DNA of 53,165 nucleotides from a virus (lineage: Duplodnaviria > Caudoviricetes). Location of the stretch: IMG/VR virus record IMGVR_UViG_3300032225_001816, positions 1-53,165 of that record; one strand, given 5' to 3'. The first letter of the stretch is position 1, and every line of letters begins with the position of its first letter. Position numbers and translations under genes: made by a program. The notes beneath the pieces were generated by a model that was not told where the DNA came from, searched no databases, and worked only from the letters and a program-made list of their open reading frames with translations. Below, piece by piece: positions 7,045 to 41,555 of the stretch.

Positions 7045-7049
7045 GTTAT

Positions 7050-8354: not shown

Positions 8355-8355
8355 T

Positions 8356-8589
8356 ATGACATCACATGAATTTGTAATATGGTTTAAAGGATTTGCTCAA
8401 GCAGCAAGTGATTATACTCTTACACCAGCACAATGGGATATTGTTAAAGATCAACTAGATAAAGTAAATAATAACACAGCACTTAAATATACCTTAGAAG
8501 GTAATAGCAGTGTATCATTATCAAACTTAGGACTTAGATCTGATATAACTTATAAAACAGACGAATTAACAACAAATACAGTATTTTAA
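8356..8589 (+). CDS. Hypothetical protein
   Basis: ORF tiles in operon; EFVIWFKGF...QWDIVKDQL. Confidence 0.6.
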   Translation: MTSHEFVIWFKGFAQAASDYTLTPAQWDIVKDQLDKVNNNTALKYTLEGNSSVSLSNLGLRSDITYKTDELTTNTVF

Positions 8590-8976: not shown

Positions 8977-8981
8977 AATTT

Positions 8982-10440: not shown

Positions 10441-10441
10441 T

Positions 10442-11867: not shown

Positions 11868-11868
11868 A

Positions 11869-15278: not shown

Positions 15279-15288
15279 AAAAAATCAT

Positions 15289-18573: not shown

Positions 18574-19541
18574 AAACTTTTATAATTGCTGAAGCAGGGG
18601 CTAATCATGATAGAAAATTTGATCAAGCAATAAGCTTGATTGATATAGCTAAAAAAGCAGGAGCAGATGCATGCAAATTTCAAACATATTCCTCAGAAAC
18701 TCTCTATAGTAAAAATACTCCTGACTTTGCTGGGTATCAAAATATCAATCAGTTAATAAAAGATATAGAATTACCTCGTGAATGGCAGAAAGATTTAAAA
18801 CAGTATTGTGATGAAGTAGGAATTGAATTTATGTCTACTCCTTTTGATGAAAAGGCAGTTGATGAATTAGTATTATTAGGTGTTAAAAGATTAAAAATAG
18901 CTGGATTTGAATCTACTGATTTTAGATTTGTAGATATGGTAGCATCCTCTAAATTACCATTAATTATATCTTTAGGTATAGGATTTAAAGATGAATATTT
19001 AGATAAATTATTTAATATAACTTCTAAATATGGTAATGATTTAACTTTATTACATTGTAATAATGCATATCCAACACCATTAATAGATGTTGATTTGAAT
19101 AAAATTAAAAGATTATCTATAAATACAAACTATAAAACCGGATTTTCAGATCATACTCTTTCCACATTTACACCAGCATTAGCTGTTATTGCTGGTGCTA
19201 CGGTTATAGAAAAACATTTTACTTTAGATAAAACATTCCCTGGACCTGATCATCCTTTTGCTTTGGAACCAAAACAATTAGAAGAAATGGTTTATTTTAT
19301 TAGGCAAGCAGAAATGACATTAACTGACCAACCAGATGAATATACCAATTCTGAAATTAATTTTATTAAAGCAAGACGATCAATAGTTTCAAAATCCCCT
19401 ATTAAAAAAGGAGAGATTTTTACTGTAGATAATATTACTACAAAACGTCCTTTTTTAGAGGGATATATTTCTGCTAGTGAATTTGAAAATATATTAGGAA
19501 AAATAGCTGATAAAGACTATAATGAAGATGATTTTATATGA
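18570..19541 (+). CDS. neuB: Nonulosonic acid synthase (NeuB/PseI/LegI family) with C-terminal SAF/AFP domain
   Basis: IIAEAGANH, KFQT, STPFD, LHC..AYP, GFSDHT, IEKHFT..GPDH, RRSI..KRP. Confidence 0.92.
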   Translation: MKTFIIAEAGANHDRKFDQAISLIDIAKKAGADACKFQTYSSETLYSKNTPDFAGYQNINQLIKDIELPREWQKDLKQYCDEVGIEFMSTPFDEKAVDELVLLGVKRLKIAGFESTDFRFVDMVASSKLPLIISLGIGFKDEYLDKLFNITSKYGNDLTLLHCNNAYPTPLIDVDLNKIKRLSINTNYKTGFSDHTLSTFTPALAVIAGATVIEKHFTLDKTFPGPDHPFALEPKQLEEMVYFIRQAEMTLTDQPDEYTNSEINFIKARRSIVSKSPIKKGEIFTVDNITTKRPFLEGYISASEFENILGKIADKDYNEDDFI

Positions 19542-20191
19542 ATATACTAATATCAAAAGATAATTCATGGTCAAATGAATTATTTAATTTATTAAAATCG
19601 GATAATTTCATATGGCTTACAGAGCTTAATAAAAACACACTGGATTACTACAATCCAGAATGGATATTTTTCTTCCATTGGTCTGATATTGTTCCCGAAT
19701 CTATTTTTACAAAATATAAATGTGTTGTTACACATACAGGAAATTTACCTGAAGGAAGAGGTGGAAGTCCTTTACAGAATCAAATATTAGATGGTATTGT
19801 ATCTTCTCAAGTTAATCTTATTGAAATGTGTAATGAAATAGATGGTGGAGGAATATATTGTAGTGCTCCTGTAACTCTTCAAGGTAATTTGGATGATATA
19901 TGGAGAGCAATAACTAAAATTACTTTTAATTTAATTACAAAATGTGCATCAGAATCTCCTATTCCTACTCCTCAAAAAGGTACACCTAAAATATATAAAA
20001 GAAGAAAAACAACCAAAATTGACTTTGGTAACTCAGATAATTTATCATACATTTATGATCAAATAAGAATGTTAGATTCTGATGATTATCAAAAATCTCA
20101 TATAGAAATAGGTGATTTTGTTTTAGAATTTAGTAGAGCTAAAATGAATAATAATAAAATACTAGCTGATGTTATCATTACAAAAAAATAA
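19538..20191 (+). CDS. Sugar N-formyltransferase (Fmt-like)
   Basis: HTGNLPEGRGGSP, IDGG, IRMLD. Confidence 0.85.
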   Translation: MNILISKDNSWSNELFNLLKSDNFIWLTELNKNTLDYYNPEWIFFFHWSDIVPESIFTKYKCVVTHTGNLPEGRGGSPLQNQILDGIVSSQVNLIEMCNEIDGGGIYCSAPVTLQGNLDDIWRAITKITFNLITKCASESPIPTPQKGTPKIYKRRKTTKIDFGNSDNLSYIYDQIRMLDSDDYQKSHIEIGDFVLEFSRAKMNNNKILADVIITKK

Positions 20192-20834
20192 AAAAATATT
20201 AGTACTAGCTGCTCATCCTGATGATGAAACTTTAGGATGTGGTGGAACTATATATAAATTATCTAATAAAGGACATCAAATACACTTATTAACATTTACT
20301 GATGGAGTTGGAAGTAGAAATAATAATGAAGAAAATAGAAACTCTAAATTAGAACAAATATCCAGTATATTAGGTATAAAAAAAACTAATTCAGGAAATT
20401 TTCCTGATAATGCAATGGATTCTGTTCCTCTATTAGAAGTATGTCAGTTTATAGAAAATAATGTTAACTACAATCCAGATATTATATTTACTCATTTTAA
20501 TAATGATTTAAATGTAGATCATCAAATAGTAACTAAAGCGGCTTTATCTGCTTTTAGACCACAGTATGGATTTAAAAATAAAATTTATTCTTATTTTATT
20601 CCATCTTCAACTGATTATAACCCTTTATTTCAATTTGATGGAAATTCATATATTGAATTATCAGAAAAAGAAGTACAAACTAAAATAAGTGCTCTGCAAA
20701 TATATGATAAAGAAATGAGATCTTATCCTCATACTAGAAGTTATCAAAATGTAGAAAATCTAATGAAAGTATGGGGAAGTGAAGTTGGTACTTATTATTG
20801 TGAAAAATTTAAATTGATACGAGAAATAATATGA
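20169..20834 (+). CDS. PIG-L/LmbE-family deacetylase
   Basis: AAHPDDE, TH..DLNVDH. Confidence 0.9.
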   Translation: MLSLQKNKKILVLAAHPDDETLGCGGTIYKLSNKGHQIHLLTFTDGVGSRNNNEENRNSKLEQISSILGIKKTNSGNFPDNAMDSVPLLEVCQFIENNVNYNPDIIFTHFNNDLNVDHQIVTKAALSAFRPQYGFKNKIYSYFIPSSTDYNPLFQFDGNSYIELSEKEVQTKISALQIYDKEMRSYPHTRSYQNVENLMKVWGSEVGTYYCEKFKLIREII

Positions 20835-21367
20835 TTAAAGGAAATTTAGTTTATTTGGTAAAACCTCAAAGAGAGGATATGCCTAAATTATTAGAATGGA
20901 GAAATGATCCTAATAATAGAAAATATTATAGAGAATATAAAGAATCTAATTTAGAAGATCAAATAAAATGGTATGAAAATACTATGATGGTTGATCCAAC
21001 ATGGCATCATTTTGTAGTAAAACCAATAAATGATCCTAATAAAATAATAGGAGTTACTTTTTTAAATCATATTCATCCTATATATAGAACTGGAGAATTT
21101 GGAATTACATTAGGAGACCCAGAATATAGAGGAAAAGGATATGGTAAAGACATGTTATTAACCTTAATTAAATATGGTTTTGAGCAATTAAATTTAAATA
21201 GAATATGGTGTGAGGTTTATTCAAATAATGATTCTGTCCATGTTTATAGAAATATAGGATTTAAAGATGAAGGTGTATTAAGACAACATGTATTTAAAGA
21301 TAATAAATATTTAGATTCTTATATGTTAGGAATGTTAAAATCAGAATATGAACAATTATATAAATAA
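20831..21367 (+). CDS. GNAT acetyltransferase (PseH/RimL-like)
   Basis: WRND, RGKGYG, LNLNRI..V..NN..YRNIGF..EG. Confidence 0.88.
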   Translation: MIKGNLVYLVKPQREDMPKLLEWRNDPNNRKYYREYKESNLEDQIKWYENTMMVDPTWHHFVVKPINDPNKIIGVTFLNHIHPIYRTGEFGITLGDPEYRGKGYGKDMLLTLIKYGFEQLNLNRIWCEVYSNNDSVHVYRNIGFKDEGVLRQHVFKDNKYLDSYMLGMLKSEYEQLYK

Positions 21368-21370
21368 CAA

Positions 21371-22552
21371 ATGGAAAAAATAACATTTTGCATACCAAGC
21401 AAATCAAATTTACGATATCTTAAAACATGTATTCCTTCTATTAGAGAAAATGCTTTTAGAAAAGACCATGATATTATTGTATTTGTTGATTCTGATGAAG
21501 ATGGAACAGTTGAATGGTTAGAACAAGTTAAAGATCAATACAATTTAACATATTACATCAACCCAGAATTAGGTAAACGTTTGTTTGGTATTGGTAAAGC
21601 ATACGATCATTGCATTGAAAAATCAACCACTAAAGTGTTTATGATTTTCCATGCTGATATGATGTTGGGAGAATATGCTGATTTGAAAGCTTATAATCAT
21701 TTAAAATCTAAAACAGTAGTGTGTTCTACTCGTATTGAACCTCCTATTCATCCTAATGATGGAGAAAAAATCCAAATTGATTTTGGAATGTGGCCTGAAG
21801 AATTTAAAAAAGATGAATTTAATAAATATATTGAATCACAGTTAGATGAAACTAAAACTACGAATGGTGTATTTGCTCCTTGGATGATGTATAGAGATGA
21901 ATTTTTAGCCATTGGTGGACATGACCCAATAATGCACTCATGTAGAGAAGATTCGGATGTATTTAATAGAATGAAACTAGCAGGATTTGAATTTATTCAG
22001 CCTTGGAATTCATTGGTATATCATTTAACAGGAAGAGGAGCTGGTAGTTTTGGAGGTGATGAAAAACGTCATGAACAATGGAAACGTGATATGAATAACT
22101 CAACCAAAGAATTTATTCGTAAATGGGGTTCAAATGTTAAACATTCTCCATTAATGGATCCTATTATATCACCTAAATATAATATTGGTTTTGTAGTACA
22201 TAATTGTAATTTACAAATATTAGAAGCATTAGAACCATGGTGTGATAGAATATACACTAATGAAACTTATAGAATAGGTAGAATGTGGGATTTTGTTGAA
22301 ATAGAACAAGCTAATACTAGTTTTGATTTAAGTAAACGTGTATTAACAGTTGAACATAATGATCCTATAGCAGAAAATAATATAGTAATTGAATTTGATG
22401 GAACTAAATTAACAAACGAAAATTTCCAATTACTCCAACGATTACCCGAAATTATACATGACTCCGGTGAGATTGGACAATTTGAATTAGATATATTTAA
22501 ACTTACTATTAATAGTTTAGAAACTTATGAACATACTTTAATAAAAATTTAG
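21371..22552 (+). CDS. Glycosyltransferase (GT-A, family 2) with C-terminal extension
   Basis: TFCIPS, DGT, FHAD, IGGHD..REDSD, VYH; similar to 9592..10440. Confidence 0.85.
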   Translation: MEKITFCIPSKSNLRYLKTCIPSIRENAFRKDHDIIVFVDSDEDGTVEWLEQVKDQYNLTYYINPELGKRLFGIGKAYDHCIEKSTTKVFMIFHADMMLGEYADLKAYNHLKSKTVVCSTRIEPPIHPNDGEKIQIDFGMWPEEFKKDEFNKYIESQLDETKTTNGVFAPWMMYRDEFLAIGGHDPIMHSCREDSDVFNRMKLAGFEFIQPWNSLVYHLTGRGAGSFGGDEKRHEQWKRDMNNSTKEFIRKWGSNVKHSPLMDPIISPKYNIGFVVHNCNLQILEALEPWCDRIYTNETYRIGRMWDFVEIEQANTSFDLSKRVLTVEHNDPIAENNIVIEFDGTKLTNENFQLLQRLPEIIHDSGEIGQFELDIFKLTINSLETYEHTLIKI

Positions 22553-25907: not shown

Positions 25908-25993
25908 AGTCGAGTGGTGGAACTGGTAGACACGCAGGACTTAAAATCCTGTTCGCCGCAACGCGAGTGTGGGTTCGATTCCCATCTCGACTA
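25908..25993 (+). tRNA. tRNA-Leu (TAA)
   Basis: Acceptor AGTCGAG/CTCGACT; anticodon arm CAGGA-CTTAAAA-TCCTG; long variable arm; GGTTCGATT T-loop; CCA not encoded. Confidence 0.92.
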
Positions 25994-26063
25994 CGCAAAA
26001 ACTTTCCGGACGTTGGATTAAGTTCCTTACCTCAATCGTGAGATGGGTTTATAGATCCTATAT

Positions 26064-26134
26064 TGTGACATGGTGTAGCGGTAACACTACAGATTTTGAT
26101 TCTGTCATCTATGGTTCGAATCCATGTGTCACAT
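26064..26134 (+). tRNA. tRNA-Gln (TTG)
   Basis: Acceptor TGTGACA/TGTCACA; anticodon arm ACAGA-TTTTGAT-TCTGT; GGTTCGAATCC. Confidence 0.9.
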
Positions 26135-26139
26135 CTGAT

Positions 26140-26212
26140 AGTCAGGTGGCGAAACTGGTTAAACGCTACGAGCGCTTGCTCTATTGTATAGGTTCAAATC
26201 CTATTCTGACTA
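26140..26212 (+). ncRNA. tRNA-like RNA without a canonical anticodon arm
   Basis: Acceptor AGTCAGG/TCTGACT, D arm GCG..CGC, T arm ATAGG-TTCAAAT-CCTAT; middle region gives only GAGC-gctt-GCTC. Confidence 0.65.
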
Positions 26213-26336
26213 CTTGATCAACAGATCACTCATGTTAACCCGGACTTGTGGGGTGGTCTGAAAAACAAACAAGAAAGGGAGTGCCGTTATTTTACTGGTT
26301 TTGAAGATTCGGTATGCTCAATAAATCAGTAGCGCT

Positions 26337-26408
26337 GCCGCGGTGGTCAAGGGGTTAAGACGCTTCCCTTTCACGGAAGAGTCACGGGTTCGATTCCCGT
26401 CCGTGGTA
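26337..26408 (+). tRNA. tRNA-Glu (TTC)
   Basis: Acceptor GCCGCGG/CCGTGGT; anticodon arm CTTCC-CTTTCAC-GGAAG; GGTTCGATT. Confidence 0.92.
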
Positions 26409-26423
26409 CTAATATTTATGGTT

Positions 26424-26743: not shown

Positions 26744-27164
26744 GGGGGTGCCTTGGATTTGCTCCGAATCAAAGGATAGTATTACATGTAGTGAGATGGT
26801 TCTAACTCACTTTAATCAATGGGCAAACAAATAAACGACAATCAAGAATTATCTGATTGGACCTTCGAAGACGCTATGGCGTTTGTCGGAGCTGACGAGT
26901 ACGCTTTAGCGGCTTAGTCACCAGGGGTAACTGAAACCTTGCAACAGAACAGTACAGCTGGGGTACGCTTATGCCACTAGCGGAAGATACGAGTAAGCAG
27001 TTTTTGGACTTAAACCAAATGGTGGAGCCGGTGATCATCACTGGTTAGTTCCCTACGGTGCAGAATGTGTTTGGGATCTTTCCAGCACAAACAGTACTAA
27101 ACATGTGAGACGTTAATGCTATTGCTTTTTTACGGAAACACGGGTTCGACTCCCGTCACCTCCA
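26744..27164 (+). ncRNA. ssrA: tmRNA
   Basis: Acceptor GGGGGTG/CACCTCC with G3-U70, 3' T arm ACGGG-TTCGACT-CCCGT, internal tag frame 26837..26917 DNQELSDWTFEDAMAFVGADEYALAA*. Confidence 0.93.
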
Positions 27165-27167
27165 CAA

Positions 27168-27581: not shown

Positions 27582-28109
27582 ATGGCAGACTTTAAAAAAT
27601 ACTTTCCAACATTAGTCAAATGGGAAGGTTCATCATTCGAAGTTGTACCTGGAGATGCAGGTGGACCAACTAAATATGGGGTTATATTAGCAGAATGGAA
27701 AGCTAAAGGTTGGGATAAAGATGGAGATAAAGATATTGATGTTAATGATCTTAAATTAATTACAGCAGATGATGCTGCTAGTATAGCAAAAACTCACTAT
27801 TGGGATAAACTAAAAGCAGACGATATTAAAAATCAGTCAATAGCTGAATTTTTAATTGATTTTGCTTATAACTGTGGTGTAGGAACTGCAGCTAAAAAAA
27901 TTCAAGAATGCTTAGGAGTAATAATTGATGGTAATATTGGTCCTAAATCAATAAAAGCTATTAATGAAGCAGATCAAAAACAACTATTTAATAATTTAAA
28001 AACAAAAAGAAGAAATTATTATTTAGGTATTGTTGCTAGAAATCCACTTCAAATTAAGTTTTTAAAGGGATGGTTAAGAAGAAATGATTCTTTTAAGTTT
28101 ATAGCCTAA
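27582..28109 (+). CDS. Endolysin, glycoside hydrolase family 108 with peptidoglycan-binding domain
   Basis: WEG...DAGGPTKYGV, YWD, DFAYNCG, DGNIGPKS, FLKGWLRR. Confidence 0.9.
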   Translation: MADFKKYFPTLVKWEGSSFEVVPGDAGGPTKYGVILAEWKAKGWDKDGDKDIDVNDLKLITADDAASIAKTHYWDKLKADDIKNQSIAEFLIDFAYNCGVGTAAKKIQECLGVIIDGNIGPKSIKAINEADQKQLFNNLKTKRRNYYLGIVARNPLQIKFLKGWLRRNDSFKFIA

Positions 28110-30941: not shown

Positions 30942-31136
30942 ATGACAACTAAAGAAGAAATGTACATGAAATGCCTAATGATTGAAGCATTCGTGAAATC
31001 AGCAGTAATTAATGGTATGACTGATAATGCAACATTAGTATCAATGGTTGATGGAGCATTTCATCCTGAAACCAGTGATGAAATGGAAGCGTATTCTGAA
31101 GCAATCATATACGCTAAGTTTTCAATATTAAATTAA
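30942..31136 (+). CDS. Hypothetical protein
   Basis: Single gene between a GGCA motif and a terminator. Confidence 0.6.
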   Translation: MTTKEEMYMKCLMIEAFVKSAVINGMTDNATLVSMVDGAFHPETSDEMEAYSEAIIYAKFSILN

Positions 31137-31162
31137 TATTAAATCTCCATATAAATTTAATT

Positions 31163-31188
31163 AAGCCCTCATTTTGAGGGCTTTTTTT
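31163..31188 (+). terminator. Intrinsic terminator
   Basis: AAGCCCTCA-ttt-TGAGGGCTT plus T run. Confidence 0.85.
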
Positions 31189-31217
31189 ATCATATTTATT
31201 GGAAATCGATTAAAAGT

Positions 31218-31802
31218 ATGAAACAGTTCCTTAGTGTACTGTTCCTATTAACCATTTTTTTTTATCCAAAAGCACAAACACTCGATACAGTAGAATACCA
31301 TTCGACTAATGTTATATACCAAGTAACAAATATCCCTGGTAACACCTACACCTGGACAGTTGCCACACCCGGCACAATAACAAATGGTCAAGGAACAAAC
31401 CAAATAACAGTAAATTGGAACTCAGCAGGTCCTGGATATATCCCAAATGCTGTATCTGTATATGCAACCAATCAATTTGGCTGTATTAGCCCTACAGTAT
31501 TACTGAATTTATTTATACCAGTTCCTCCTTCATCTATCTTTTATCCAAATGCTTTTACACCTAATGGTGATGGAATTAATGATGGGTGGTCACCAATTCC
31601 ATTTAATATAATTAAAATAAGATGGGAAATATATAATCGATGGGGTGAAAGAGTATATCAATGCTACGATATAGGAAAAAAATGGAATGGAATATATAAA
31701 GGAGCACCACAGGGAACATTTAATTTTGTTTATATTTGTTGGTGGCGTGGTATTGATGGAAAAACAGGATTTGATAAAGGAAATTTAATATTAATACGAT
31801 GA
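31218..31802 (+). CDS. Secreted protein: signal peptide, PKD-like domain, T9SS type B (gliding motility-associated) C-terminal domain
   Basis: YTWTV..G.I..GQGTNQITVNW; YPNAFTPNGDGIND..IYNRWGERVY..WNG.YKG..G.LILIR. Confidence 0.88.
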   Translation: MKQFLSVLFLLTIFFYPKAQTLDTVEYHSTNVIYQVTNIPGNTYTWTVATPGTITNGQGTNQITVNWNSAGPGYIPNAVSVYATNQFGCISPTVLLNLFIPVPPSSIFYPNAFTPNGDGINDGWSPIPFNIIKIRWEIYNRWGERVYQCYDIGKKWNGIYKGAPQGTFNFVYICWWRGIDGKTGFDKGNLILIR

Positions 31803-31939
31803 AACCATTATTAAAAAAGTATGCTATAAGAGCTATTATATTAATATTGCTCTTTTTATTAGCAATGATATTTAATGGGTGTAATAGATACTATTCACCT
31901 GAAAGATATGCTAATCCTAGACATAAGTTTAGAGCTTAA
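31799..31939 (+). CDS. Small lipoprotein (46 aa, not in ORF track)
   Basis: MKPLLKKYAIRAIILILLFLLAMIFNG-C; start overlaps previous stop and stop abuts next ATG. Confidence 0.6.
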   Translation: MKPLLKKYAIRAIILILLFLLAMIFNGCNRYYSPERYANPRHKFRA

Positions 31940-33295
31940 ATGAAAAAAACCATAGTTACAATATTATTATTACTAGTTTCAATTTTGAGTTATTCACAAT
32001 GTGGTAACTTAGATTTTGAGACAGGTAATTTTACTGGATGGTATGGTAAATTGGGTACTTGTTGTCCTATTGCTTTACCAACAAATGGTTTTGGTAATAC
32101 AAGACAAACCATAATGACTCAAGGTATTGATCCCCATTCATGTGGTGGATTAAGAACAGTATATGCAGGAACATACTCAGCAAGATTAGGTAATGATAGA
32201 GTAGGAGCACAAGCAGAAGGATTATATTATCAATTCACTGTAACACCATCTACAACAATTATCAGATATGCTTACGCTGTAGTATTTCAGGATCCAGGAC
32301 ACTCCCCATCAGATCAACCCCGATTTCAATCACGCGTTAGATTAGCGAATGGTTCTGTAATACCATGTACTGATTATACAGTAACAGCAGCATCTAATTT
32401 ACCTGGATTTCAGTATTGTCCACCACCACCACCTGATACATCAAATGTTGCTTGGAGAGACTGGACTGAAGTTGCTTTAGATTTATCTGCTTATGTAGGA
32501 CAAACAGTAACACTTGAATTTGAAACGGGTGATTGTAAATTAAGAGGTCACTATGGATATGCCTATATAGATGCTGTTCAATGTGGACAAGTAGATACTC
32601 ATGTAACATATTGTGAAAATGATACTACATTAACAATAAATGGAATGGGTGGGTTTGCTAGTTATCTTTGGGAAACTGGAGATACAACTCAAAATATAAC
32701 TGTTAATCCACAACTATATGACACAATAACATGTCAAGTAACTACATTTTTAGGATGTCAACTAACATTATATTACATATTAGATATGGCTCCTGGTCAT
32801 CCCAATTTTATTTGGGGTACTGATTGTAATGGGTTAACTCAACTTACAAATACAAGTAATGCTAGTTATTCGCCAATAAATTATTTATGGACATTTCCTA
32901 ATGGCACAACATCTACATTACAGAACCCAACTATAACATTAGCACCTGGTACCTATAATGTGACATTACAAATATCATCTAATTTAGGATGTGGTAGAGA
33001 TACAACTATTCAAATAACAGTACCACAATTACCTAACCCTAGATTTACAGCTCCAAACGTCTGCTTGGGAAATCCAACTCAGTTTAGTAACTTATCAGCA
33101 CAAGGTAATATACTGTATAATTGGAATTTTGGTGATAATAATACGTCTACTATATTTTCACCTTCTCATACCTATTTATCAGTAGGAACATATAATGTAA
33201 CTTTAACTGCTACAAGCGGACCATGTACCTCTTCAACTCAAGGACAAGTAACAATATATCCATTACCAACAATAACCCCAATTATACATAACTAA
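31940..33295 (+). CDS. Secreted PKD-domain protein
   Basis: Signal peptide; NLDFETGNFTGW domain; PKD signatures WNFGD..STIFSPSHTY..GTYNVTL. Confidence 0.85.
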   Translation: MKKTIVTILLLLVSILSYSQCGNLDFETGNFTGWYGKLGTCCPIALPTNGFGNTRQTIMTQGIDPHSCGGLRTVYAGTYSARLGNDRVGAQAEGLYYQFTVTPSTTIIRYAYAVVFQDPGHSPSDQPRFQSRVRLANGSVIPCTDYTVTAASNLPGFQYCPPPPPDTSNVAWRDWTEVALDLSAYVGQTVTLEFETGDCKLRGHYGYAYIDAVQCGQVDTHVTYCENDTTLTINGMGGFASYLWETGDTTQNITVNPQLYDTITCQVTTFLGCQLTLYYILDMAPGHPNFIWGTDCNGLTQLTNTSNASYSPINYLWTFPNGTTSTLQNPTITLAPGTYNVTLQISSNLGCGRDTTIQITVPQLPNPRFTAPNVCLGNPTQFSNLSAQGNILYNWNFGDNNTSTIFSPSHTYLSVGTYNVTLTATSGPCTSSTQGQVTIYPLPTITPIIHN

Positions 33296-33307
33296 ACCAT
33301 TACAATT

Positions 33308-35077
33308 ATGAGAATAATATTTACTTTAATATTTGTTTTATTAAGTTTCTTTTTAAATGCAAAGAACACCACAGTTAATACTTTATCTCAACTACAAACT
33401 ACATTCTCCGCCGCCGTTGCTAATGATACTATAACAATAACAAATGGTACTTATAATTGGGGGCAAATAAACTTAGTAAACACAAGAACTACTTCTACTA
33501 GTGCATGGATTGTAGTGAAAGCACAAACACCACTTGGAGTTACTTTTACTGGCTCAACATATTTGGGATTTTCAGGTAAAAGAATATTAATTACTGGCTT
33601 TAGATTTGCTAATGGTAATTCAGGCACAAATGCGGTAATTGCTTTTAGATCATCTTCATCTGTGCTAGCTGACTATTGTAGAGTTAGTAATATAAGAATA
33701 GACAATTATAACACACCAGACAGTGCAATTGAAAATGAATGGGTAGCTATATATGGAATACGAAATAGATTAGACCATTGTTCATTTATTAATAAATCAA
33801 ATGCTAGAGCAACAGTAGTTGTTTGGTACAGCACAGCAACCTTCCCTGCAAAATCAACTTCAACCTATCATATAATTGATTCAAATGCTTTCGTTCATAG
33901 AAGCTATATGGGTGGAAATGGTGGTGAGAGTCTTCGTGTTGGGGTGGGAAATAATTCCAGAACTGATGGATATAATATAATTGAATATAATTTATTTGAA
34001 GATTGTATTCAAACTGAACCAGAAATTGTATCAAATAAATCTGCTCGTAACATATATCGTTACAATACCTTTCATAATTGTAATGGTGGATTAACATTAA
34101 GAATGGGTAAATACTCTACAGTTTATTCTAATTTTTTTATAAACAATGATCCAACAAAAACAGGTTCTTATGGTATAAGAATTATTGATAAGGGACACAC
34201 TGTGTTTAATAATTATTGTGAAGGATTATTAGGTACAAGTAACTCTACAAGTTCAATGAGATGTCCAATAGTAATTTATAATGGTTCATTTGCTACAGCT
34301 GATAGTCTAAATCCACTTATTTTGAATGGAGCATATCTACCAGCAGATAGTGCAGTTGTTATATTTAATACAATTGTAAATTGTCCAGGTGGACCAGGTA
34401 TTAGAATAGGACATACTGATAATGGAGCTGCAACTAATCAACCAAAAGGACTAAAGATATCAAATAATCTAATTAAAATGAGTAGTGGTCAAGCCGCATA
34501 TAAAGATTCTAAAAATACTACTCTTACTTATACAGCAGAAGGAAATAGGTATAGTGCTCCAAATGGTTTAGGACTAACTAGTATTACTGGTTTTACTAAC
34601 ACAACATTATCTTTTAGTAATAGAGCAAATGGTATACTAACAGCACCTGTTATAATTAGAGATGCTTCTGTTAATACATCTAAGTATACTAGTACTTTAT
34701 TAGGTCTAGATATACAAGGACAAACACGATCTTCTATTTATGATGTTGGATGTGATGAAATAAATGGTAGTGGATTAGTAAAAGCAATACCAGTAGATAC
34801 TACAAAAGTTGGAGCTTCATCAAGCACAATAACATACGCAAAATCAACTTCAACTGTAGTGATTATAGAACCTGTTTTTCAATATGATATAGCTAAAAAA
34901 GCCATTCGTATAGATTCTAAACTAGCAGGAGAAATAATGATCACAAATGTATTAGGAAATATTAGATTTATAGCAAAATATAATGCGGGTGGTCAATGGA
35001 TAAATTTAAATACATTACCAAGTGGATATTATTTTGCAAAAACATACAATAATATAATCACCTTTTTTATTAATTAA
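33308..35077 (+). CDS. Polysaccharide lyase family 6 (chondroitinase B/alginate lyase-like) with T9SS type A-like CTD
   Basis: Signal peptide; NRLDHC, NGGESLRVG, IEYNLFE, EPEIVSNKS, GLTLR; C-terminal ITNVLG..INL..LPSGYYF. Confidence 0.85.
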   Translation: MRIIFTLIFVLLSFFLNAKNTTVNTLSQLQTTFSAAVANDTITITNGTYNWGQINLVNTRTTSTSAWIVVKAQTPLGVTFTGSTYLGFSGKRILITGFRFANGNSGTNAVIAFRSSSSVLADYCRVSNIRIDNYNTPDSAIENEWVAIYGIRNRLDHCSFINKSNARATVVVWYSTATFPAKSTSTYHIIDSNAFVHRSYMGGNGGESLRVGVGNNSRTDGYNIIEYNLFEDCIQTEPEIVSNKSARNIYRYNTFHNCNGGLTLRMGKYSTVYSNFFINNDPTKTGSYGIRIIDKGHTVFNNYCEGLLGTSNSTSSMRCPIVIYNGSFATADSLNPLILNGAYLPADSAVVIFNTIVNCPGGPGIRIGHTDNGAATNQPKGLKISNNLIKMSSGQAAYKDSKNTTLTYTAEGNRYSAPNGLGLTSITGFTNTTLSFSNRANGILTAPVIIRDASVNTSKYTSTLLGLDIQGQTRSSIYDVGCDEINGSGLVKAIPVDTTKVGASSSTITYAKSTSTVVIIEPVFQYDIAKKAIRIDSKLAGEIMITNVLGNIRFIAKYNAGGQWINLNTLPSGYYFAKTYNNIITFFIN

Positions 35078-35086
35078 AAAGAAAAC

Positions 35087-37375
35087 ATGAAAAAACTCGT
35101 TTTATTATTAACACTGTTATTTACAGTAGCATTCGCTAATGCTAGGAAATTTTATTTTAGTTCTTCAACTGGCAACGACAGTTACACTACAACACAAGCA
35201 CAAAACCAAGCTACACCTTGGGCAACATTAAGGAAATTAACACAACTTACTACTAACACAAATGGCACAACTGTATTTAGAGCAGGCGATTCCATTTGCT
35301 TTAAACGTGGCGATGTATTCGCTAATGGTATGGCAAATGGGTATTGTTCAGCTTATTGGTGGAATGTACAAGGTGATGCTTATTTCACAGCACCAAGTGG
35401 CACACCAGGTAATCCAATAGTAATTACTAATTATGGTGATCCAACTTTACCATTACCAAACTGGCTATATCCGACAGCTACCTATCCTGTATCGACTTGG
35501 AATAGTAGAGAAGGTAGAGCAATAATTGAATTTAGTGGGGTACATGATATTGTTGTAGATGGTATTCAATCAAATGACTACAGAGTACCTGAATGGGATA
35601 AAGCAAATCCTGGGTATACAGGTGGTTGGATATTAGGAGAACCTACACGCTCACCCGCTTATGGTCAAGCAGGTTGTGTTTCAGATACTAATTTAAGAAA
35701 ACAATTCGTAAGAAGGTTTACACTCAAGAATTGTGTATTCAATAATTGTATGTACGGTATTCAAGATTGTGCAATGTGGGATAGTAAAATAACTAATTGC
35801 ACATTTACAAACTTTAAGTCATCAGCGGATACAGCCGGTACACACGACATAATGGCAGGTTCATTAGATGGATTATGTGGATTTAATCTTGAAATTAGTC
35901 ATAACCTTATCAAAGGAGCTTGGGGTAAATCAGGTAGGATTGGTTCATGTAGCGGTCTTGGAGGTGTAGCATTAGATATATTTTGTTTACAAGATTCAAG
36001 AGTATGTTACAACACGGTAATAGATTGTGATGGTTTTATTGAAATAGGTAACCTAGACCACAACGATACATTAAGCGGAGCTCAAAGAGATACATTCGCT
36101 TTTAATAAAATAATTAATTGTGGGCAATTTGCATACATTCACGGCTCAGTAGGAGACCCATTCGCAGGTAACAATCATCATTTAGCATTTTGGAATAATG
36201 TATGTATATCAAATAACAAAGATAGATTTATAGGTTGGGGATTCGGCAAAGATGTTTACGGAGATGGACAAGGATTTGGACCAGGTACACGTCAACCGTG
36301 GTGGTTTTTAAGAAATCCATTTAATACGTTAAATGTTGATCCAATGAGACCAATTGTAAGTACTACACAAGGTTCAAATATTATTACTGTTAGCACAAAT
36401 GCAGGAATATCAATTGGATCAGTTTGGTTTACTGATGATGATAATTTAGCGAGTAACGATTATAAAACTGTCACAGTTACAAATATCAATGGTAATATAA
36501 TCACATTAAGTGATGCATCTACAAGAACCGTATCAGGATATACTAATGGTAAATTTTATCTTCCTGTATCCGATCAATCATGGAGTAATCCTGATAATGG
36601 TGCTTGGAATAATTATGGTGGTACAAGATTTACAGTACAGTATGCGGGAGATGCTTATGTTCATGGCAATCAATATGATACTCTATTTGATATGAGAAAT
36701 AATATCTTTTATTGGACTACTGGTATACAAGGTTTATATGACAGAAATAGATTCAAAAGAAACAATAATATATATATGCCAATTGGTGGATGTAGATATC
36801 CATCAGCATTAGGAGGTACTTTAAATTCAAATGAAAGAATAATTTCATCAAAAATATTTGCTGACACAACAGCAATATATCCTGAAAATTGGGACTTACA
36901 CCCAGTAGATACAAGCTATGCTTATAGAGGAGGAACTCCAATCTCAGGATTTACTTATGATTTTGAAGGACATCCTATTACTACTCCGTTTATAGGATTA
37001 TATACTAAATTAGGTACTGTTAGTATTGATTCATGTATATTTGCTTATGGTCAGTGGTCAGCATGTAATGGTTCATATCAAACTAGACCATATACTTCTA
37101 GCCCTGCTAGCTGTATTGGTAATCCTCCATTAGATAGTATTCAAAGAACATGTAATACTGGAATTGTAATTACTTACTTTTATTACAGTCCAGATAGAAA
37201 AAGTATATTTATTAATTGTAATACACCCGGTACTATGATTATAACTAATGTATTAGCTAATATTGTTAGAAGATATAATTATGTAGCAGGTGGTCAGTGG
37301 ATTAATGTTAAACAATTACCTACTGGAACATATTTTGCAGTAACATATAATCAGAGTATAACATTTATAAGATAG
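35087..37375 (+). CDS. Secreted right-handed beta-helix protein with T9SS type A-like CTD
   Basis: Signal peptide; FYFSSSTGND..PWAT..GDSICFKRGD; N/C-ladder repeats; C-terminal ITNVLA..INV..LPTGTYF. Confidence 0.75.
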   Translation: MKKLVLLLTLLFTVAFANARKFYFSSSTGNDSYTTTQAQNQATPWATLRKLTQLTTNTNGTTVFRAGDSICFKRGDVFANGMANGYCSAYWWNVQGDAYFTAPSGTPGNPIVITNYGDPTLPLPNWLYPTATYPVSTWNSREGRAIIEFSGVHDIVVDGIQSNDYRVPEWDKANPGYTGGWILGEPTRSPAYGQAGCVSDTNLRKQFVRRFTLKNCVFNNCMYGIQDCAMWDSKITNCTFTNFKSSADTAGTHDIMAGSLDGLCGFNLEISHNLIKGAWGKSGRIGSCSGLGGVALDIFCLQDSRVCYNTVIDCDGFIEIGNLDHNDTLSGAQRDTFAFNKIINCGQFAYIHGSVGDPFAGNNHHLAFWNNVCISNNKDRFIGWGFGKDVYGDGQGFGPGTRQPWWFLRNPFNTLNVDPMRPIVSTTQGSNIITVSTNAGISIGSVWFTDDDNLASNDYKTVTVTNINGNIITLSDASTRTVSGYTNGKFYLPVSDQSWSNPDNGAWNNYGGTRFTVQYAGDAYVHGNQYDTLFDMRNNIFYWTTGIQGLYDRNRFKRNNNIYMPIGGCRYPSALGGTLNSNERIISSKIFADTTAIYPENWDLHPVDTSYAYRGGTPISGFTYDFEGHPITTPFIGLYTKLGTVSIDSCIFAYGQWSACNGSYQTRPYTSSPASCIGNPPLDSIQRTCNTGIVITYFYYSPDRKSIFINCNTPGTMIITNVLANIVRRYNYVAGGQWINVKQLPTGTYFAVTYNQSITFIR

Positions 37376-37406
37376 TTTTTTATTTTTAAACCAAACCAAT
37401 TCAATT

Positions 37407-37571
37407 ATGAAAGCAAATTGGAAAACAACCGTAGGTGGTATTTTAGCCGCTGTAGGTAGCTACTTAGTAAACTCTCAAACAGGAGTATTAAACTTAGTAG
37501 GACAAGTATGTCAGGCAGTTGGATTATTCTTCTTAGGATACTCTGCTCAGGATGCTAAAAAAGCAGCCTAA
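37407..37571 (+). CDS. Small two-TM protein, holin-like (54 aa, not in ORF track; paralog of 29599..29778)
   Basis: MKANWKTTVGGILAAVGSYLV...GLFFLGYSAQDAKKAA. Confidence 0.7.
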   Translation: MKANWKTTVGGILAAVGSYLVNSQTGVLNLVGQVCQAVGLFFLGYSAQDAKKAA

Positions 37572-37595
37572 TCAGGACATTAAAAAAATCAGAAT

Positions 37596-37621
37596 AGGGC
37601 TCGAGAAATCGAGCCCTTTTT
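37596..37621 (+). terminator. Intrinsic terminator
   Basis: AGGGCTCGA-gaaa-TCGAGCCCT plus T run. Confidence 0.88.
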
Positions 37622-37652
37622 GATATTTATTGCCGACCATGAATTAACAAGT

Positions 37653-38297
37653 ATGAAGAAGCTATTGCTGACTTTCTTATTCTTTATACCTTTTTGTCTC
37701 AGTTCATCCCGCATTATCAAAAGACCAAGTTTCGAAAGAGTCTATTTACGTGTTTTTAAATTGGAAAAAAAGCTAGAACTTTGGACTAGCGATTCGGACA
37801 CTGGTTCTTTTGTATTATACAAAACGTATAATATTTGTATGTTGAGCGGAAAATTAGGACCCAAAAGGAAAGAAGGTGATCTCCAAGTACCAGAAGGGTA
37901 TTATGAAATAGTTGACTTTAACTATCACAGCAAGTACGTATTAAGTTTAGGAATAAATTATCCTAACGAATCAGATAAAATACTTAGTAAATATTCTAAA
38001 TTAGGAGGAAATATATACATTCATGGTAATTGTGTATCTGTAGGATGTATAGCTATGGGAAATGAAAATATAAAAGAAATATTTTCTATATGTGAAATAG
38101 CTAAAAGTAAAGGACAACATATACCAGTTCACATATATCCTATTAATTATAATAATACACCTATATTAAGTGTAATTAAAAATGAAGATTTAAAATTTGA
38201 ATATAATTTGAAGGAAGGGTTTGATTTATTTGAAAAAAATAAGTATTTACCTTTTGTTAGGATAGATAGTATAGGACAATATTTATATTCGCAATAA
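37653..38297 (+). CDS. L,D-transpeptidase-family protein (YkuD fold, YafK/DpaA-like)
   Basis: Signal peptide; GPKRKEGDLQVPEGYY, INYPN, GGNIYIHGNCVSVGCIAM. Confidence 0.88.
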   Translation: MKKLLLTFLFFIPFCLSSSRIIKRPSFERVYLRVFKLEKKLELWTSDSDTGSFVLYKTYNICMLSGKLGPKRKEGDLQVPEGYYEIVDFNYHSKYVLSLGINYPNESDKILSKYSKLGGNIYIHGNCVSVGCIAMGNENIKEIFSICEIAKSKGQHIPVHIYPINYNNTPILSVIKNEDLKFEYNLKEGFDLFEKNKYLPFVRIDSIGQYLYSQ

Positions 38298-38304
38298 CCA
38301 TTGT

Positions 38305-39303
38305 ATGAAAAAATTATTAGTATACCTAGTGTTATGGGCCATCTCCATAAGCGCTAATGCCCAATGTATTGATATATATGGGAGGGAAGCTGATTGTCCC
38401 ACAGAAAATGACTCATTAGTAGTATACAATAGTGCATTAAAGGTTTACGATTTCTACGAAAAAAATCCCGATTACGTTAAATTAAAATCTGTTAGATTAA
38501 AAACTAGACAGGATGTAATTAACTGTTTTTATTCATTACAAGAAGCTGTTGATAGTTTCCAAATAAGATGGCAGTTAAGAGAACGTGTACTAAAAGGAGA
38601 AGATATTCCTAGTGTTTTACTTCCAAGAGATGGTAAAAATATTCCAATAGACCAATACTACCAATACATTGATATGTACAGGTTTTATCAGCGTGAATTA
38701 GAAAGTGGGATATTAAATGTTAATTCTCCATTTCCTATTTACGATATAAGAATAGCTCCTCTAGTAGTTAATTCATATGAAAACAGATATAGTAGTGATG
38801 GATATAATGGAGACTTTGTGAACGTAGCTTTATATATCCCTGTTGTTGTTAAACCATATAGATTACTTACTGACTCAGAAAAAGTAGTTAGAGAAAAAAT
38901 ATTAAAAGGTGTTGTACCAAACAAAGTAATTCCAAAAACTAAAAAGGTAGTTACACCAACACCACCTTCAAAAGAGGTAGTTAAAAAATTAATAAAAGAT
39001 ACTACTTTATTAGCTAGTGCAAATATAGATTTTGTATTACCTCCAATTGGTCAAACAGTAATAATAAATAAAAAACCAAAACCAATACCTTGGGGTGCAA
39101 CTCCAATTTACTATCAACACCCTACAGGCTCTGGTTGGTTAATGGGTTGGATGGTAGGTCGTAAGTTTAGAAAATTTTTACCTGAAGATGAATTTTATTC
39201 GTCGCTTCCAAAATGGATGGTTGATTTTTTAAATAATGATATTGAATTAGAAAAATATCTAAGAATAAAATGGGGTGGTTATTATGATGGAATTTATGAA
39301 TAA
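38305..39303 (+). CDS. Secreted hypothetical protein
   Basis: Signal peptide MKKLLVYLVLWAISISANA-Q. Confidence 0.7.
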   Translation: MKKLLVYLVLWAISISANAQCIDIYGREADCPTENDSLVVYNSALKVYDFYEKNPDYVKLKSVRLKTRQDVINCFYSLQEAVDSFQIRWQLRERVLKGEDIPSVLLPRDGKNIPIDQYYQYIDMYRFYQRELESGILNVNSPFPIYDIRIAPLVVNSYENRYSSDGYNGDFVNVALYIPVVVKPYRLLTDSEKVVREKILKGVVPNKVIPKTKKVVTPTPPSKEVVKKLIKDTTLLASANIDFVLPPIGQTVIINKKPKPIPWGATPIYYQHPTGSGWLMGWMVGRKFRKFLPEDEFYSSLPKWMVDFLNNDIELEKYLRIKWGGYYDGIYE

Positions 39304-39321
39304 ACTATTAAAAACTAAAAT

Positions 39322-40668
39322 ATGAAACAATTATTTAATTTATTAATTTTATCTATCTTTACAATAGGTGGAGTTAATGCTCAATCATTAAGGACTAAAA
39401 ATTTAGGTCCAAAAGTAAATTCAATACACCATGAAATTAGACCTATAGTGTCTGAAGATGGTGGTGTATTATTTTTTACTGTAGAAGGTAATCCAAAAAA
39501 CAGAAAAGGACAAGACATCTGGATGTCAATAAGAACAGACAGTGGATGGAGAGAAGCTGAAAGATTACCTGACTACATTAATAGCCAAAAATATAATGGT
39601 GTATATTGGTGCTCACCAGATGGTAGAAGATTATTATTACGTGGTACATACCAAGACAATACTCGTGGCTTTTCTATGACTGAAAGAAGAGATGGTAGAT
39701 GGGTAATACCAAGTCCAATAACTGTAAAAGATTATAGCAATATGTCTCGTGGTATATATACTGGTGCTACTTTATCACCTGATGAAAAAACATTAATAAT
39801 GTATTTCTCAGATGAAACAAATAGTGATATAAATGATTTATGGATTAGTAAATTAGATTCAACCACAGGTGAATACTCAACTCCAGTTAAATTAAATATT
39901 AGTAGAGAAGATGATGATGAAATTAGTCCATATATTTCACCTGATAATAAAACATTATTCTTCGCTTCAGATAGAAGAGGTGGATTTGGTAGCTTTGATA
40001 TTTGGATGACTAAAAGATTAGATTCAACATGGATGAATTGGTCTGATCCTGTAAATATAGGAGCTCCATTTAACACTAGAGGTTGGGATGCTTATTTCTC
40101 AATTGGTGATAATGGATTGATTGGTTATTCATCATCAAATCGTAAACACAGTTTACCAAGTGATTGTGGTGGTGCTGATATTGTGAGTGATACTTTAGCT
40201 GATTGGTTACAACCAGAAAAACCAGTTGAACCAATTCATGATACTGTTTATATCTACATTCACGATACAACTACTATTACTATTCCTTGTAATTCATTAG
40301 ATACAATGAATAATGAGCAGTTAAAAGAAAAATTAAAGCATGGCAGAATATTATTTGATTTTGGTAGATCAGATTTAAGAAGCGATGCTTATACTACATT
40401 AGATATAGTAGCTGAATTGATGAAGAGAAATCCTAATATGACTATAGAAGTAGGTGGCAACACAGACGCAATAGGTGTTAGTATTAGAAACCAGAAACAA
40501 TCAGATGAACGTGCTCAATCAGCTAAGAGTTACTTAATATCTAAAGGTATAAGTAATAATAGAATAGCTGCTAAAGGATATTCAAACACTAGACCAGTGG
40601 CAAATAATAAAACAGACGAGGGTCGTCAGTTGAATAGACGTGTTGATATAATAGTGATAAGTGAATAA
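39322..40668 (+). CDS. PD40 beta-propeller plus OmpA_C peptidoglycan-binding protein (PorE-like, lacking TPR and lipobox)
   Basis: SPDNKTLFFASDRRGGFGSFDIW repeats; ILFDFG..GNTD..N..SDERA..GY...N.T.EGRQLNRRV. Confidence 0.85.
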   Translation: MKQLFNLLILSIFTIGGVNAQSLRTKNLGPKVNSIHHEIRPIVSEDGGVLFFTVEGNPKNRKGQDIWMSIRTDSGWREAERLPDYINSQKYNGVYWCSPDGRRLLLRGTYQDNTRGFSMTERRDGRWVIPSPITVKDYSNMSRGIYTGATLSPDEKTLIMYFSDETNSDINDLWISKLDSTTGEYSTPVKLNISREDDDEISPYISPDNKTLFFASDRRGGFGSFDIWMTKRLDSTWMNWSDPVNIGAPFNTRGWDAYFSIGDNGLIGYSSSNRKHSLPSDCGGADIVSDTLADWLQPEKPVEPIHDTVYIYIHDTTTITIPCNSLDTMNNEQLKEKLKHGRILFDFGRSDLRSDAYTTLDIVAELMKRNPNMTIEVGGNTDAIGVSIRNQKQSDERAQSAKSYLISKGISNNRIAAKGYSNTRPVANNKTDEGRQLNRRVDIIVISE

Positions 40669-40741: not shown

Positions 40742-41530
40742 ATGTCACAAGAATTAAACACGAATGCAGTAATGAGTAATAATAATTACTCACTTGATCA
40801 GATTAGAATGATGGCCCCATCAGTATTCACTACTGAAAAAGCCGCTCACTTAACAGACAAATACATCCAAACACCAACATCACGTGTGGTTGAGGATTTG
40901 ATGGCTCTAGGTTGGCAAGTAACTAAAGCACAAGAAGTTAAGTCGCGTAAATATAAAGGGTTCCAAAAACACATTGTCGTATTTAGACACCCAGACATTC
41001 AAATTAAGGGTAAAAATGGTGATGATGCGTTTCCACAGATCCTATTAACAAATAGCCATGATGGTAAAGCGGCATTTAACTTTAGAGTAGGTATATTTCG
41101 TCTTGTATGTAGTAATGGATTGGTTGTTAGTGATGCTGATTTTAATAATGTGAGCATCCGCCATATGAATTACACATTCGAATCATTACAAGCGAAAGTA
41201 AATGAGGTAATTGAGAAGTTACCTGGATTGGTACAGAAGATTAATCTGTTTAAATCAACCAAGTTAACTGAAGATCAAATGACTGAGTTTGCTTATAAAG
41301 CAGCTACACTCAGAACCAAAGCTAGAGTTAATGCAATGGAATTGCTTGAAGCAACTCGTAATGAAGACCAAGGTAATGATTTGTGGGCTGTATTTAACAG
41401 AGTACAAGAGAAAATACTTGGTGGTTCATTCAGAAGCGGTAAGCGTAAATCACGTTCAGTAACATCGTTCCAAAAGGACATTGAGATTAATGAGCAACTG
41501 TTTGAATTAGCTGGTTCATATTTAGGATAA
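40742..41530 (+). CDS. DUF932-family protein
   Basis: LLTNSHDG, GIFRLVCSNG, LWAVFNRVQE. Confidence 0.85.
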   Translation: MSQELNTNAVMSNNNYSLDQIRMMAPSVFTTEKAAHLTDKYIQTPTSRVVEDLMALGWQVTKAQEVKSRKYKGFQKHIVVFRHPDIQIKGKNGDDAFPQILLTNSHDGKAAFNFRVGIFRLVCSNGLVVSDADFNNVSIRHMNYTFESLQAKVNEVIEKLPGLVQKINLFKSTKLTEDQMTEFAYKAATLRTKARVNAMELLEATRNEDQGNDLWAVFNRVQEKILGGSFRSGKRKSRSVTSFQKDIEINEQLFELAGSYLG

Positions 41531-41537: not shown

Positions 41538-41555
41538 GGGGGAGGCAACTCCCCC
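41538..41555 (+). terminator. GC-rich hairpin with GCAA tetraloop overlapping a promoter motif
   Basis: GGGGGAG-GCAA-CTCCCCC then TTCTT. Confidence 0.6.

Follow-up and report, generated by a model that had tools for sequence, protein, structure and literature searches.

A candidate accessory island of exported proteins, with predicted type IX secretion cargo, in a T4-like phage likely to infect Chitinophagaceae

Phage-encoded cargo of a type IX secretion system (T9SS) has precedents in Bacteroidetes phages. Bellas et al. 2020 (PMC7468147), in the accessible part of the article, described three variable genes for T9SS type A cargo in a 76-kb phage and proposed that the host system is hijacked. 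De Jonge et al. 2019 (PMC6949934), again as far as the accessible text extends, reported open reading frames (ORFs) with T9SS sorting domains that neighbour BACON ORFs on crAss-like contigs. In a survey from 2026 (PMC13507307), leaders are found on 5% of prophage carbohydrate-active enzymes, and the available portion of its text has no occurrence of 'T9SS' or 'type IX'. Beyond PMC7468147 and PMC6949934, our literature search, outside which subscription journals lay, returned no phage T9SS cargo and no account of the locus analyzed here. This locus consists of nine genes, designated A, a2, B, C, D, tm, E, F and G, which lie head to tail on the + strand at positions 31218-40668 of the virus record IMGVR_UViG_3300032225_001816 (Caudoviricetes); the whole 53,165-nucleotide stretch of that record is referred to as the window. 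We hold it probable, with some reservation, that the nine genes form an accessory 'secretome island' of a ~170-kb T4-like freshwater phage with a likely host in the Chitinophagaceae (Bacteroidota), and that their products remodel the host surface and wall late in infection. Use of the T9SS by a phage has so far been proposed once, from metagenomes. The idea is thus already in print because PMC7468147 put forward the hijack of the host T9SS, and the statement of an earlier note on this DNA that it knew of no description as a system does not hold, phage T9SS cargo having been reported in 2020. New elements are the organisation as an island, the putative type B pair A and B, a clade-specific tail on what looks like a captured lyase, the association with a late-type promoter motif and the predicted periplasmic trio E, F and G.

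The earlier note had pointed to a run of signal-peptide proteins in this region, and all of the genes it named are in place on the + strand. A Sec-type leader was flagged by a hydropathy rule in 7 of the 96 non-overlapping + strand ORFs of the window, and all seven lie within 31218-40668. The leader of A, flagged in this way, reads MKQFLSVLFLLTIFFYPKAQ, and that of E passes by eye when the protein is read from the ATG at 37653. In all, N-termini resembling signal peptides were seen in the nine consecutive island proteins and in no other ORF of the window. In G001, a record of 170,255 bp with direct terminal repeats, a 100% complete rating and a terminase match, all flagged leader ORFs of at least 170 amino acids fall in 146.4-158.9 kb. 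G001 also holds the closest viral homolog of D (about 86-87% identical). The leader of D was flagged in 94 of the 120 D relatives listed and in 24 of the 27 D copies found in viral loci, and it is retained in nearly all relatives despite drifting sequence. Further leader proteins adjoin D in its relatives, among them a non-specific endonuclease, a YkuD_2 and an SPFH protein, and one of 567 amino acids with PF18962.

Curated hidden Markov model (HMM) cut-offs support A in silico as a T9SS type B cargo protein, as the earlier note had read it. A matches PKD_6 and exceeds the cut-offs of both CHU_C (PF13585; 46.7 bits, cut-off 27) and TIGR04131 (42.7 bits, cut-off 35). We compared three phage records, the window, G001 and G007 (107,775 bp, Gp23 present), and TIGR04131 is above its cut-off in all three, with exactly one match in each, the A gene. 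The three phages keep the FTPNGDGxNDGW motif and the ...ILIR end of the protein. The small gene a2 has a partial homolog in the viral locus L069 (79% over residues 26-44). B has no sorting domain of its own, and its Cys-rich N-domain is almost invariant among the three phages. Of its 287 relatives 120 were listed, and fusion to a CHU_C type B domain is seen in 2 of these; an A-like gene adjoins B in three viral loci on contigs up to 294 kb (L107, L108 and L109). A and B probably form a working pair.

The identification of C as a lyase of polysaccharide lyase family 6 (PL6) is borne out by a match to PF14592 (Chondroitinase_B, PL6 family) at E 1.5e-59 (202.6 bits, cut-off 24) and by matches to the solved PL6 enzymes 7o77 (E 1.3e-50), AlyGC (7e-49) and chondroitinase B (2e-22). 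The C motifs NGGESLRVG, EPEIVSNKS and LTLRMG align with the same motifs of 7o77, and K244 and R265 are invariant in 19 homologs; we take these motifs to hold the Ca-binding and Lys/Arg catalytic residues of PL6. Among solved structures C matches poly-mannuronate and alginate lyases best, which gives no more than a hint as to whether alginate or dermatan/chondroitin is the substrate. Homologs with 52-70% identity over ~85% of C are found on contigs up to 5 Mb, and most of them carry PF18962; two are named Chitinophagaceae or Ferruginibacter by their source. D has no Pfam match. Its AlphaFold model (predicted local distance difference test, pLDDT, 82.5) agrees with the beta-helix assignment of the earlier note, predicting a right-handed beta-helix followed by a C-terminal beta-sandwich, with residues 686-762 modelled as 7-8 strands at pLDDT about 87-93. 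Foldseek ranked GH136 lacto-N-biosidases first, followed by GH120 XylC, tailspikes, and PL9 and PL6 lyases. The relatives of D number 199, almost all of them metagenomic and many on 100-320 kb contigs. D occurs in 27 viral loci, and many residues are invariant in the family.

C and D have their C-terminal ~80 residues in common, with 42% identity and a match that runs to the last residues. C scores 25.2 bits against TIGR04183 in a six-frame search (cut-off 23), and 16 of 35 members of the D family match this model at E <= 0.01. We also compared the phage tail by hhalign with the tails of 51 PF18962-flagged PL6 homologs, using a reversed control, and obtained a probability of 84% (E 7e-6) against 0.2% for the control. 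A profile of the tail matches T9SS sorting-domain chains in the PDB (8glk_D, E 0.0036; 8glj_D, E 0.5). From these comparisons we read the common tail as a divergent type A sorting domain, specific to this clade. To follow its distribution, we used an HMM built from 68 of 120 D-family tails and the window's own C and D tails. In the window this model matches nothing but C and D, in G001 D alone, and among 1,409 ORFs of viral loci D-family proteins alone. Among the 120 PL6 homologs listed, the five closest orthologs (587-590 amino acids, 76-81% identical) match strongly and 3 of the remaining 115 weakly. Given this distribution, C looks like a PL6 catalytic domain joined to the tail of D. Some D relatives carry other ends in place of the type A tail, either SprB repeats ending ...SRRNRNC or ...SSVTCP, or short basic ends (...IKSRLKFKN, ...RTRKKFVNNN); relatives with changed ends include P0005, P0031, P0046, P0064, P0103 and P0106. 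These alternative ends may be other sorting or anchoring signals.

A further feature of the island is the element ATATTTAT, which the earlier note had seen ahead of the island and of the endolysin gene and which is indeed present at 31192 and 27558. By raw count the element is not enriched in the window (18 copies found, 21.3 expected). Its placement is biased: of the 13 copies on the + strand, 10 stand at a distance of 23-37 nt ahead of an ORF start (binomial p ~3e-7 versus composition-matched 8-mers), and the genes that follow them include the endolysin gene, A, E and F. In G001, 33 of 59 + strand copies are so placed, the - strand total being 21 copies, and ATATTTAT precedes the terminase gene, the sheath-match ORF and many of their neighbours in a 43-110 kb module. 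Because the element stands ahead of the terminase and sheath genes in G001, late expression of the island is plausible, which strengthens a hint already made in the earlier note. We infer that ATATTTAT fits a T4-style late promoter, with a motif that differs from that of T4 itself. No -35-like partner of the element was found, and there is no copy ahead of the GroES/GroEL, clamp-loader and nuclease genes in the window. Two other promoter markers were uninformative in the window, namely TANNTTTG, which we take to be the Bacteroidota -7 box (78 matches, 86 expected), and a sigma-70-type promoter scan (71 found, 89 expected). Terminator-like hairpins divide the region into two units, the first running from A to tm and the second comprising E, F, G and the DUF932 gene, and each of these two terminator-bounded units is headed by ATATTTAT (Table 1).

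Table 1. Features of the island and its borders (window coordinates)
Feature	Position	Strand	Description
Terminator-like hairpin and T run	31163..31183	+	9 pairs, 5 G-C; closes upstream unit
ATATTTAT promoter-like element	31192..31199	+	26 nt ahead of A
A	31218..31802	+	194 aa; signal peptide, PKD-like domain, predicted T9SS type B sorting domain
a2	31799..31939	+	46 aa; lipoprotein-like
B	31940..33295	+	451 aa; signal peptide, Cys-rich N-domain (~20-290), 2 PKD domains
C	33308..35077	+	589 aa; signal peptide, PL6 lyase, putative phage-type type A sorting domain (~512-587)
D	35087..37375	+	762 aa; signal peptide, predicted right-handed beta-helix, putative phage-type type A sorting domain (~683-762)
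tm	37407..37571	+	54 aa; Gly-rich, hydrophobic
Terminator-like hairpin	37596..37617	+	9 pairs, 6 G-C; end of unit 1
ATATTTAT element	37623..37630	+	30 nt ahead of the ATG of E
E	37653..38297	+	214 aa; YkuD fold, YafK/DpaA-like, predicted exported
F	38305..39303	+	332 aa; predicted exported, no family match
G	39322..40668	+	448 aa; predicted exported, PD40 beta-propeller and OmpA-type peptidoglycan-binding domain
DUF932 gene	40742..41530	+	conserved phage gene, right island border; no signal peptide; in the unit of E-G
Terminator-like hairpin	41538..41555	+	end of unit 2

In the second unit, E, F and G seem to be aimed at peptidoglycan rather than at secretion, judging from their relatives. E matches YkuD (PF03734; 37.4 bits, cut-off 23.4), keeps the H...GC active-site motif, IHGNCVSVGCIAM, and matches the solved YkuD protein 8ikr at E 1.5e-26. 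Against NF040599 (YafK/DpaA) it scores 129.3 bits over residues 40-223, below the equivalog cut-off of 365, so that the YafK-like label given to it in the earlier note stands for fold and motif and fails at equivalog level. The earlier note had set G beside PorE. PorE is built of TPR, a beta-propeller, CRD and OmpA_C; in the 448 residues of G only PD40 and OmpA were detected, and the PorE model has 648 positions. G was rejected as a PorE (NF052230, 130.9 bits against a cut-off of 600), the best stretch being the OmpA domain alone, and its best solved-structure matches run through the OmpA domain only, with OprF first and the OmpA domain of PorE about 18th. The PD40 and OmpA parts of the PorE comparison are thus present and the PorE identity is not. 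The suggestion that E, F and G serve as helpers of secretion finds no support; no link to secretion was seen, and their relatives point to peptidoglycan.

F has a confident predicted model (pLDDT 85.8). Foldseek returned 0 matches in the PDB at E <= 0.001, which does not by itself demonstrate a new fold; the VIA wide comparison gave a best Z of 3.0, confined to residues 256-332, and the Atlas search of the fold gave nothing usable. Residues 30-220 of F recur in proteins of 600-2900 amino acids that carry LysM, SLT, glucosaminidase, lysozyme, tail-lysozyme or crAss cargo domains; these long proteins lie within P0145-P0270, and the invariant residues of the N-domain are D36, S37, Q129, D147, R149, D170, K183, E192 and R196. 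F occurs in 32 viral loci; about 17 of 30 have it as a solitary + strand gene, flanked by portal/terminase genes and primase genes on the - strand.

The phage context of the window rests on its synteny with the complete relative G001. The window contains 122 ORFs of at least 60 amino acids, all of the long ones on the + strand, and as a linear virus record rated 33% complete it has no capsid or terminase gene. Other genes in the window are phage-like (GroES/GroEL, a T4-type clamp loader, a PD-(D/E)XK nuclease and a GH108 endolysin), and there are many small ORFs without known function. Colinearity between the window and G001 starts at G001 position 113,751, runs to the end of that record and continues to its position 1,078, with amino-acid identities of 50-96%, and G001 encodes a Gp23 capsid protein (E 6e-77) and a tail sheath. 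The check for capsid and terminase genes proposed in the earlier note accordingly fails in the window and succeeds in its complete relative. Three stretches diverge between the two: a glycan-synthesis cluster, the endolysin region and the island.

G001 and G007 have their own versions of the island, for which the earlier note had advised a search in related phages. The G001 island contains G (57% identical), tm, A (42%), B (72%), D (~86%) and F (64%) and has neither C nor E; in addition it encodes an outer-membrane barrel protein, a metallophosphoesterase, an SPFH protein and a lipoprotein with Big_7 and papain domains. In G007, A, a2, B, F, G and E stand in a row, and C and D are absent. Across the three records A, B, F and G are thus found in three, E in two and D in two, and PL6 is confined to this window among the phage records examined. 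Since island content differs among relatives, we regard it as a variable exported-protein island with recurring members, set between conserved phage genes. No match emerged when the island was compared by megablast with 50,697 phage records, and scans of viral contigs with single proteins found none for C and none for E, a result of little weight as the method detects near-identical relatives only.

Several observations touch on individual genes of the island or their surroundings. Copies of tm, 68-90% identical, occur in L001, L002, L005, L006, L013 and L014, and in four relatives (L002, L005, L006 and L013) the gene directly follows D (72-90% conserved); tm may partner D in the membrane or may be holin-like. 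The G001 lipoprotein lies at 152195-153739 (L001 6673-8217), combines Big_7 domains with a papain-type (C1) peptidase and is headed by ATATTTAT; there, a predicted exported protease takes the place of the lyase. GC skew is ~0 (-0.013 to 0.030) over window positions 31001-35000, which span A, B and C, and 0.10-0.24 in the flanks, hinting that this part was gained more recently. Elsewhere in the window, GroES and GroEL (251-2242) are 86-88% identical to their G001 counterparts, and a tmRNA and four tRNAs (Leu-taa, Gln-ttg, Arg-acg and Glu-ttc) lie at 26744-27167 and 25908-26409. The tmRNA scores 65.2 bits with Rfam (gathering score 47), and its tag peptide as given by ARAGORN ends ...YALAA. The glycan-synthesis cluster, ~17 kb at 5584-22552, encodes six glycosyltransferases along with methyltransferases and a set of nonulosonic-acid type (NeuB, a cytidylyltransferase, a PseB-like dehydratase, an aminotransferase, GNAT, a PIG-L deacetylase and a formyltransferase C-domain) and differs from G001 in content between 8982 and 21371. 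Together with the island enzymes, this cluster gives the phage genes for both building and cutting surface glycans. The endolysin (27582-28109; GH108 and PG_binding_3) is missing from the corresponding position of G001, and the lysis region is therefore variable too.

The most likely host is a low-GC member of the Chitinophagaceae. Among species-representative genomes, the only ones in which most of the helix domain of D is matched (43-46% identical) are nine metagenome-assembled genomes (MAGs), such matches being absent from isolate genomes. The label is Chitinophagaceae, Chitinophaga or uncultured Chitinophagaceae for seven of them, Streptomyces griseus for one and Chitinophaga pinensis for another. 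The D-like proteins in these MAGs are 763-1629 amino acids long (three run off the contig end, so that theirs are minimum lengths) and have the RKFYFSS start of D; two complete ones, in L029, have tails that are type-A-like by eye. The contigs with D-like genes share only D with G001 and have cellular-looking neighbours, and we take them as host DNA rather than mis-binned phage. The candidate-host MAGs encode SprA in four of four, with 6-10 PorP/SprF matches each.

If the nine genes act as an exported island in such a host, their products would cross the inner membrane via Sec late in infection, and A, C and D would then pass the outer membrane through the host T9SS. The lyase C and the helix protein D would cut polysaccharide of the surface or of the matrix surrounding the infected cell, easing the release of progeny or destroying receptors. 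E, with its YafK-like amidase or transpeptidase fold, F, and the putative peptidoglycan binder G would remain periplasmic and act on the wall and on the links between wall and outer membrane.

A number of points weigh against this reading. Signal peptides were called with a crude hydropathy rule and not with SignalP. The type A-like domains seen in C and D by the earlier note hold in part: C falls below the TIGR04183 cut-off of 23 in a whole-protein scan (20.2 bits) and so passes in one of two scorings, D stays below it in the six-frame search (18.7 bits) with no match at the family-level scan, and what remains is the shared divergent tail. The hhalign match of that tail spans 39 columns only, and two WD40 entries outrank the sorting-domain chains in the PDB search of its profile. 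In Flavobacterium johnsoniae, type B cargo needs a cognate PorP/SprF-like outer-membrane partner, which is often encoded beside it; PF11751 (PorP/SprF) is matched in none of the three phage records, and A would therefore need a host partner. The host, in turn, is one we infer. Late timing also fits virion proteins. Finally, the D copy in L003 comes just after a 2072-amino-acid tail-spike-like ORF, and that in L002 is near ORFs matching C-terminal parts of virion structural, minor tail and baseplate hub PHROGs.

A more elaborate version of the same idea, which we consider tentative and rather unlikely, is that T4-like phages of Chitinophagaceae run a late, two-arm 'exit programme', with a T9SS outer arm and a wall-loosening inner arm. 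The outer arm would consist of D, the captured PL6 enzyme with the tail of D, and A with B, exported through the T9SS by means of a phage-adapted variant of the sorting domain. In the inner arm, E, F and a soluble PD40-OmpA protein, G, would detach the outer membrane from peptidoglycan, a spanin-like job.

The island could instead serve superinfection exclusion or receptor masking, the remodelled surface and wall blocking adsorption or injection by other phages or by the progeny of the phage itself, and clearing of matrix for release not being the main role; we judge this unlikely on balance. As a lone + strand gene in ~17 of 30 other phage loci, F stands where morons typically do, and its domain recurs in the long proteins with lysozyme, SLT or crAss cargo domains. 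The content of the island is highly variable among close relatives, and the variable 17-kb glycan-synthesis cluster lies in the same window. Exclusion genes are usually made early, however, and the upstream motif of the island is common to the terminase and sheath genes of G001. D is also conserved over 27 viral loci, unlike a fast-changing exclusion gene.

In another account, which we regard as improbable, the lyase and the helix protein, captured from the host, are metabolic helpers that feed the infected cell on products of polysaccharide breakdown and play no part in release or exclusion, and E, F and G are unrelated passengers. The 52-70% identity of the PL6 part to homologs on contigs up to 5 Mb would be consistent with this, as would the GC skew of ~0 across 31-35 kb as a hint of recent gain and the restriction of PL6 to this window. 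Against it, D is widely conserved in the phage clade, C carries the tail of D in place of its own, E, F and G turn up together in other phages as well, and a late-type promoter would leave scant time for feeding.

We find it a little less probable again that D, and perhaps C, A and B, are virion parts, that is, tail spikes or fibres whose C-terminal sandwich would be an Ig-like binding module and not a signal for secretion. The predicted fold of D matches tailspikes and phage depolymerases (6f7k, HK620 entries, K64-1), the 2072-amino-acid ORF ahead of D in L003 matches tail-spike PHROGs, and the L002 neighbours of D match the C-terminal parts of virion structural or minor tail PHROGs; a late-type promoter motif is present as well. 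Yet that fold matches many cellular glycanases too, with GH136 and GH120 ranked higher, and no N-terminal virion-attachment domain was seen in D. Nearly all D relatives retain a Sec-type leader even as its sequence drifts, longer D-like proteins with the same leader stand among cellular-looking neighbours on Chitinophagaceae MAG contigs, and the G001 island is ~85 kb from the capsid, sheath and terminase genes. An assembly chimera, or host DNA misjoined to a phage contig, which the lack of structural genes, the 33% complete rating and the apparently cellular relatives of C and D might suggest, is very unlikely given the colinearity with G001, as the genes outside the island keep the same order over 53 kb and both flanks and A, B, D, F and G are common to the independently assembled complete G001 and to G007.

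If the tails work as read, a lytic phage would place its own enzymes outside the cell before lysis by way of the secretion machine of its host. The island offers clean test pieces, among them A as a small predicted type B cargo protein and two enzymes with one divergent type A tail, which could reveal what the T9SS recognises. Two others are D, from a conserved beta-helix family with close relatives almost entirely on metagenomic and viral contigs, and F, a widespread phage protein, predicted to be exported, with a confident model that has no solved structural neighbour. The island also bears on how Bacteroidota phages breach the outer membrane and on the clearing of capsule or biofilm in freshwater communities.

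Several known systems resemble parts of the island. In Escherichia coli, YafK/DpaA (LdtF) frees Braun lipoprotein from peptidoglycan; E has a like H...GC motif and differs in being phage-encoded and in scoring 129 bits against the equivalog cut-off of 365. G is like PorE (PG1058), which anchors the T9SS to peptidoglycan, in pairing a beta-propeller with an OmpA-type domain, and unlike it in having no detected TPR or carboxypeptidase-regulatory-like domain and an OmpA domain that is closer to OprF and OmpA. D has the predicted beta-helix fold and the likely polysaccharide substrate of phage tailspike depolymerases (HK620, Det7, K64-1). Unlike these, it has a cleavable-type leader, a putative secretion tail and no recognisable virion-attachment domain, and its gene lies outside the structural module in G001, the L003 copy beside the tail-spike-like ORF being the exception. 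Cellular T9SS cargo of Chitinophagaceae, comprising PL6 lyases and long beta-helix proteins that end in PF18962 tails, follows the same plan of leader, catalytic domain and C-terminal sorting domain, and is 52-70% identical in PL6 and 43-46% in the helix domain; the phage proteins differ from it in being shorter, in their tail variant, in their place in a phage genome and in the phage promoter motif ahead of them.

The closest counterparts are the phage loci with which we began, as far as the accessible text of either paper describes them. In common with the contigs of PMC6949934, the present locus has sorting-domain genes on a Bacteroidetes phage contig. The cryophage of PMC7468147 is likewise a metagenomic Bacteroidetes phage with variable glycan-active proteins that bear type A sorting domains; this comparison rests on its published description and not on sequences. 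That phage is 76 kb and circular and has three separate genes (endoglucanase, GH39 and PA14), whereas the present phage is T4-like and ~170 kb, with its cargo genes in one island. Beyond the cryophage set, the island adds a predicted type B cargo protein with a partner gene, a PL6 lyase, a shared divergent tail that we read as type A, a late-type promoter motif and three predicted periplasmic, wall-directed proteins.

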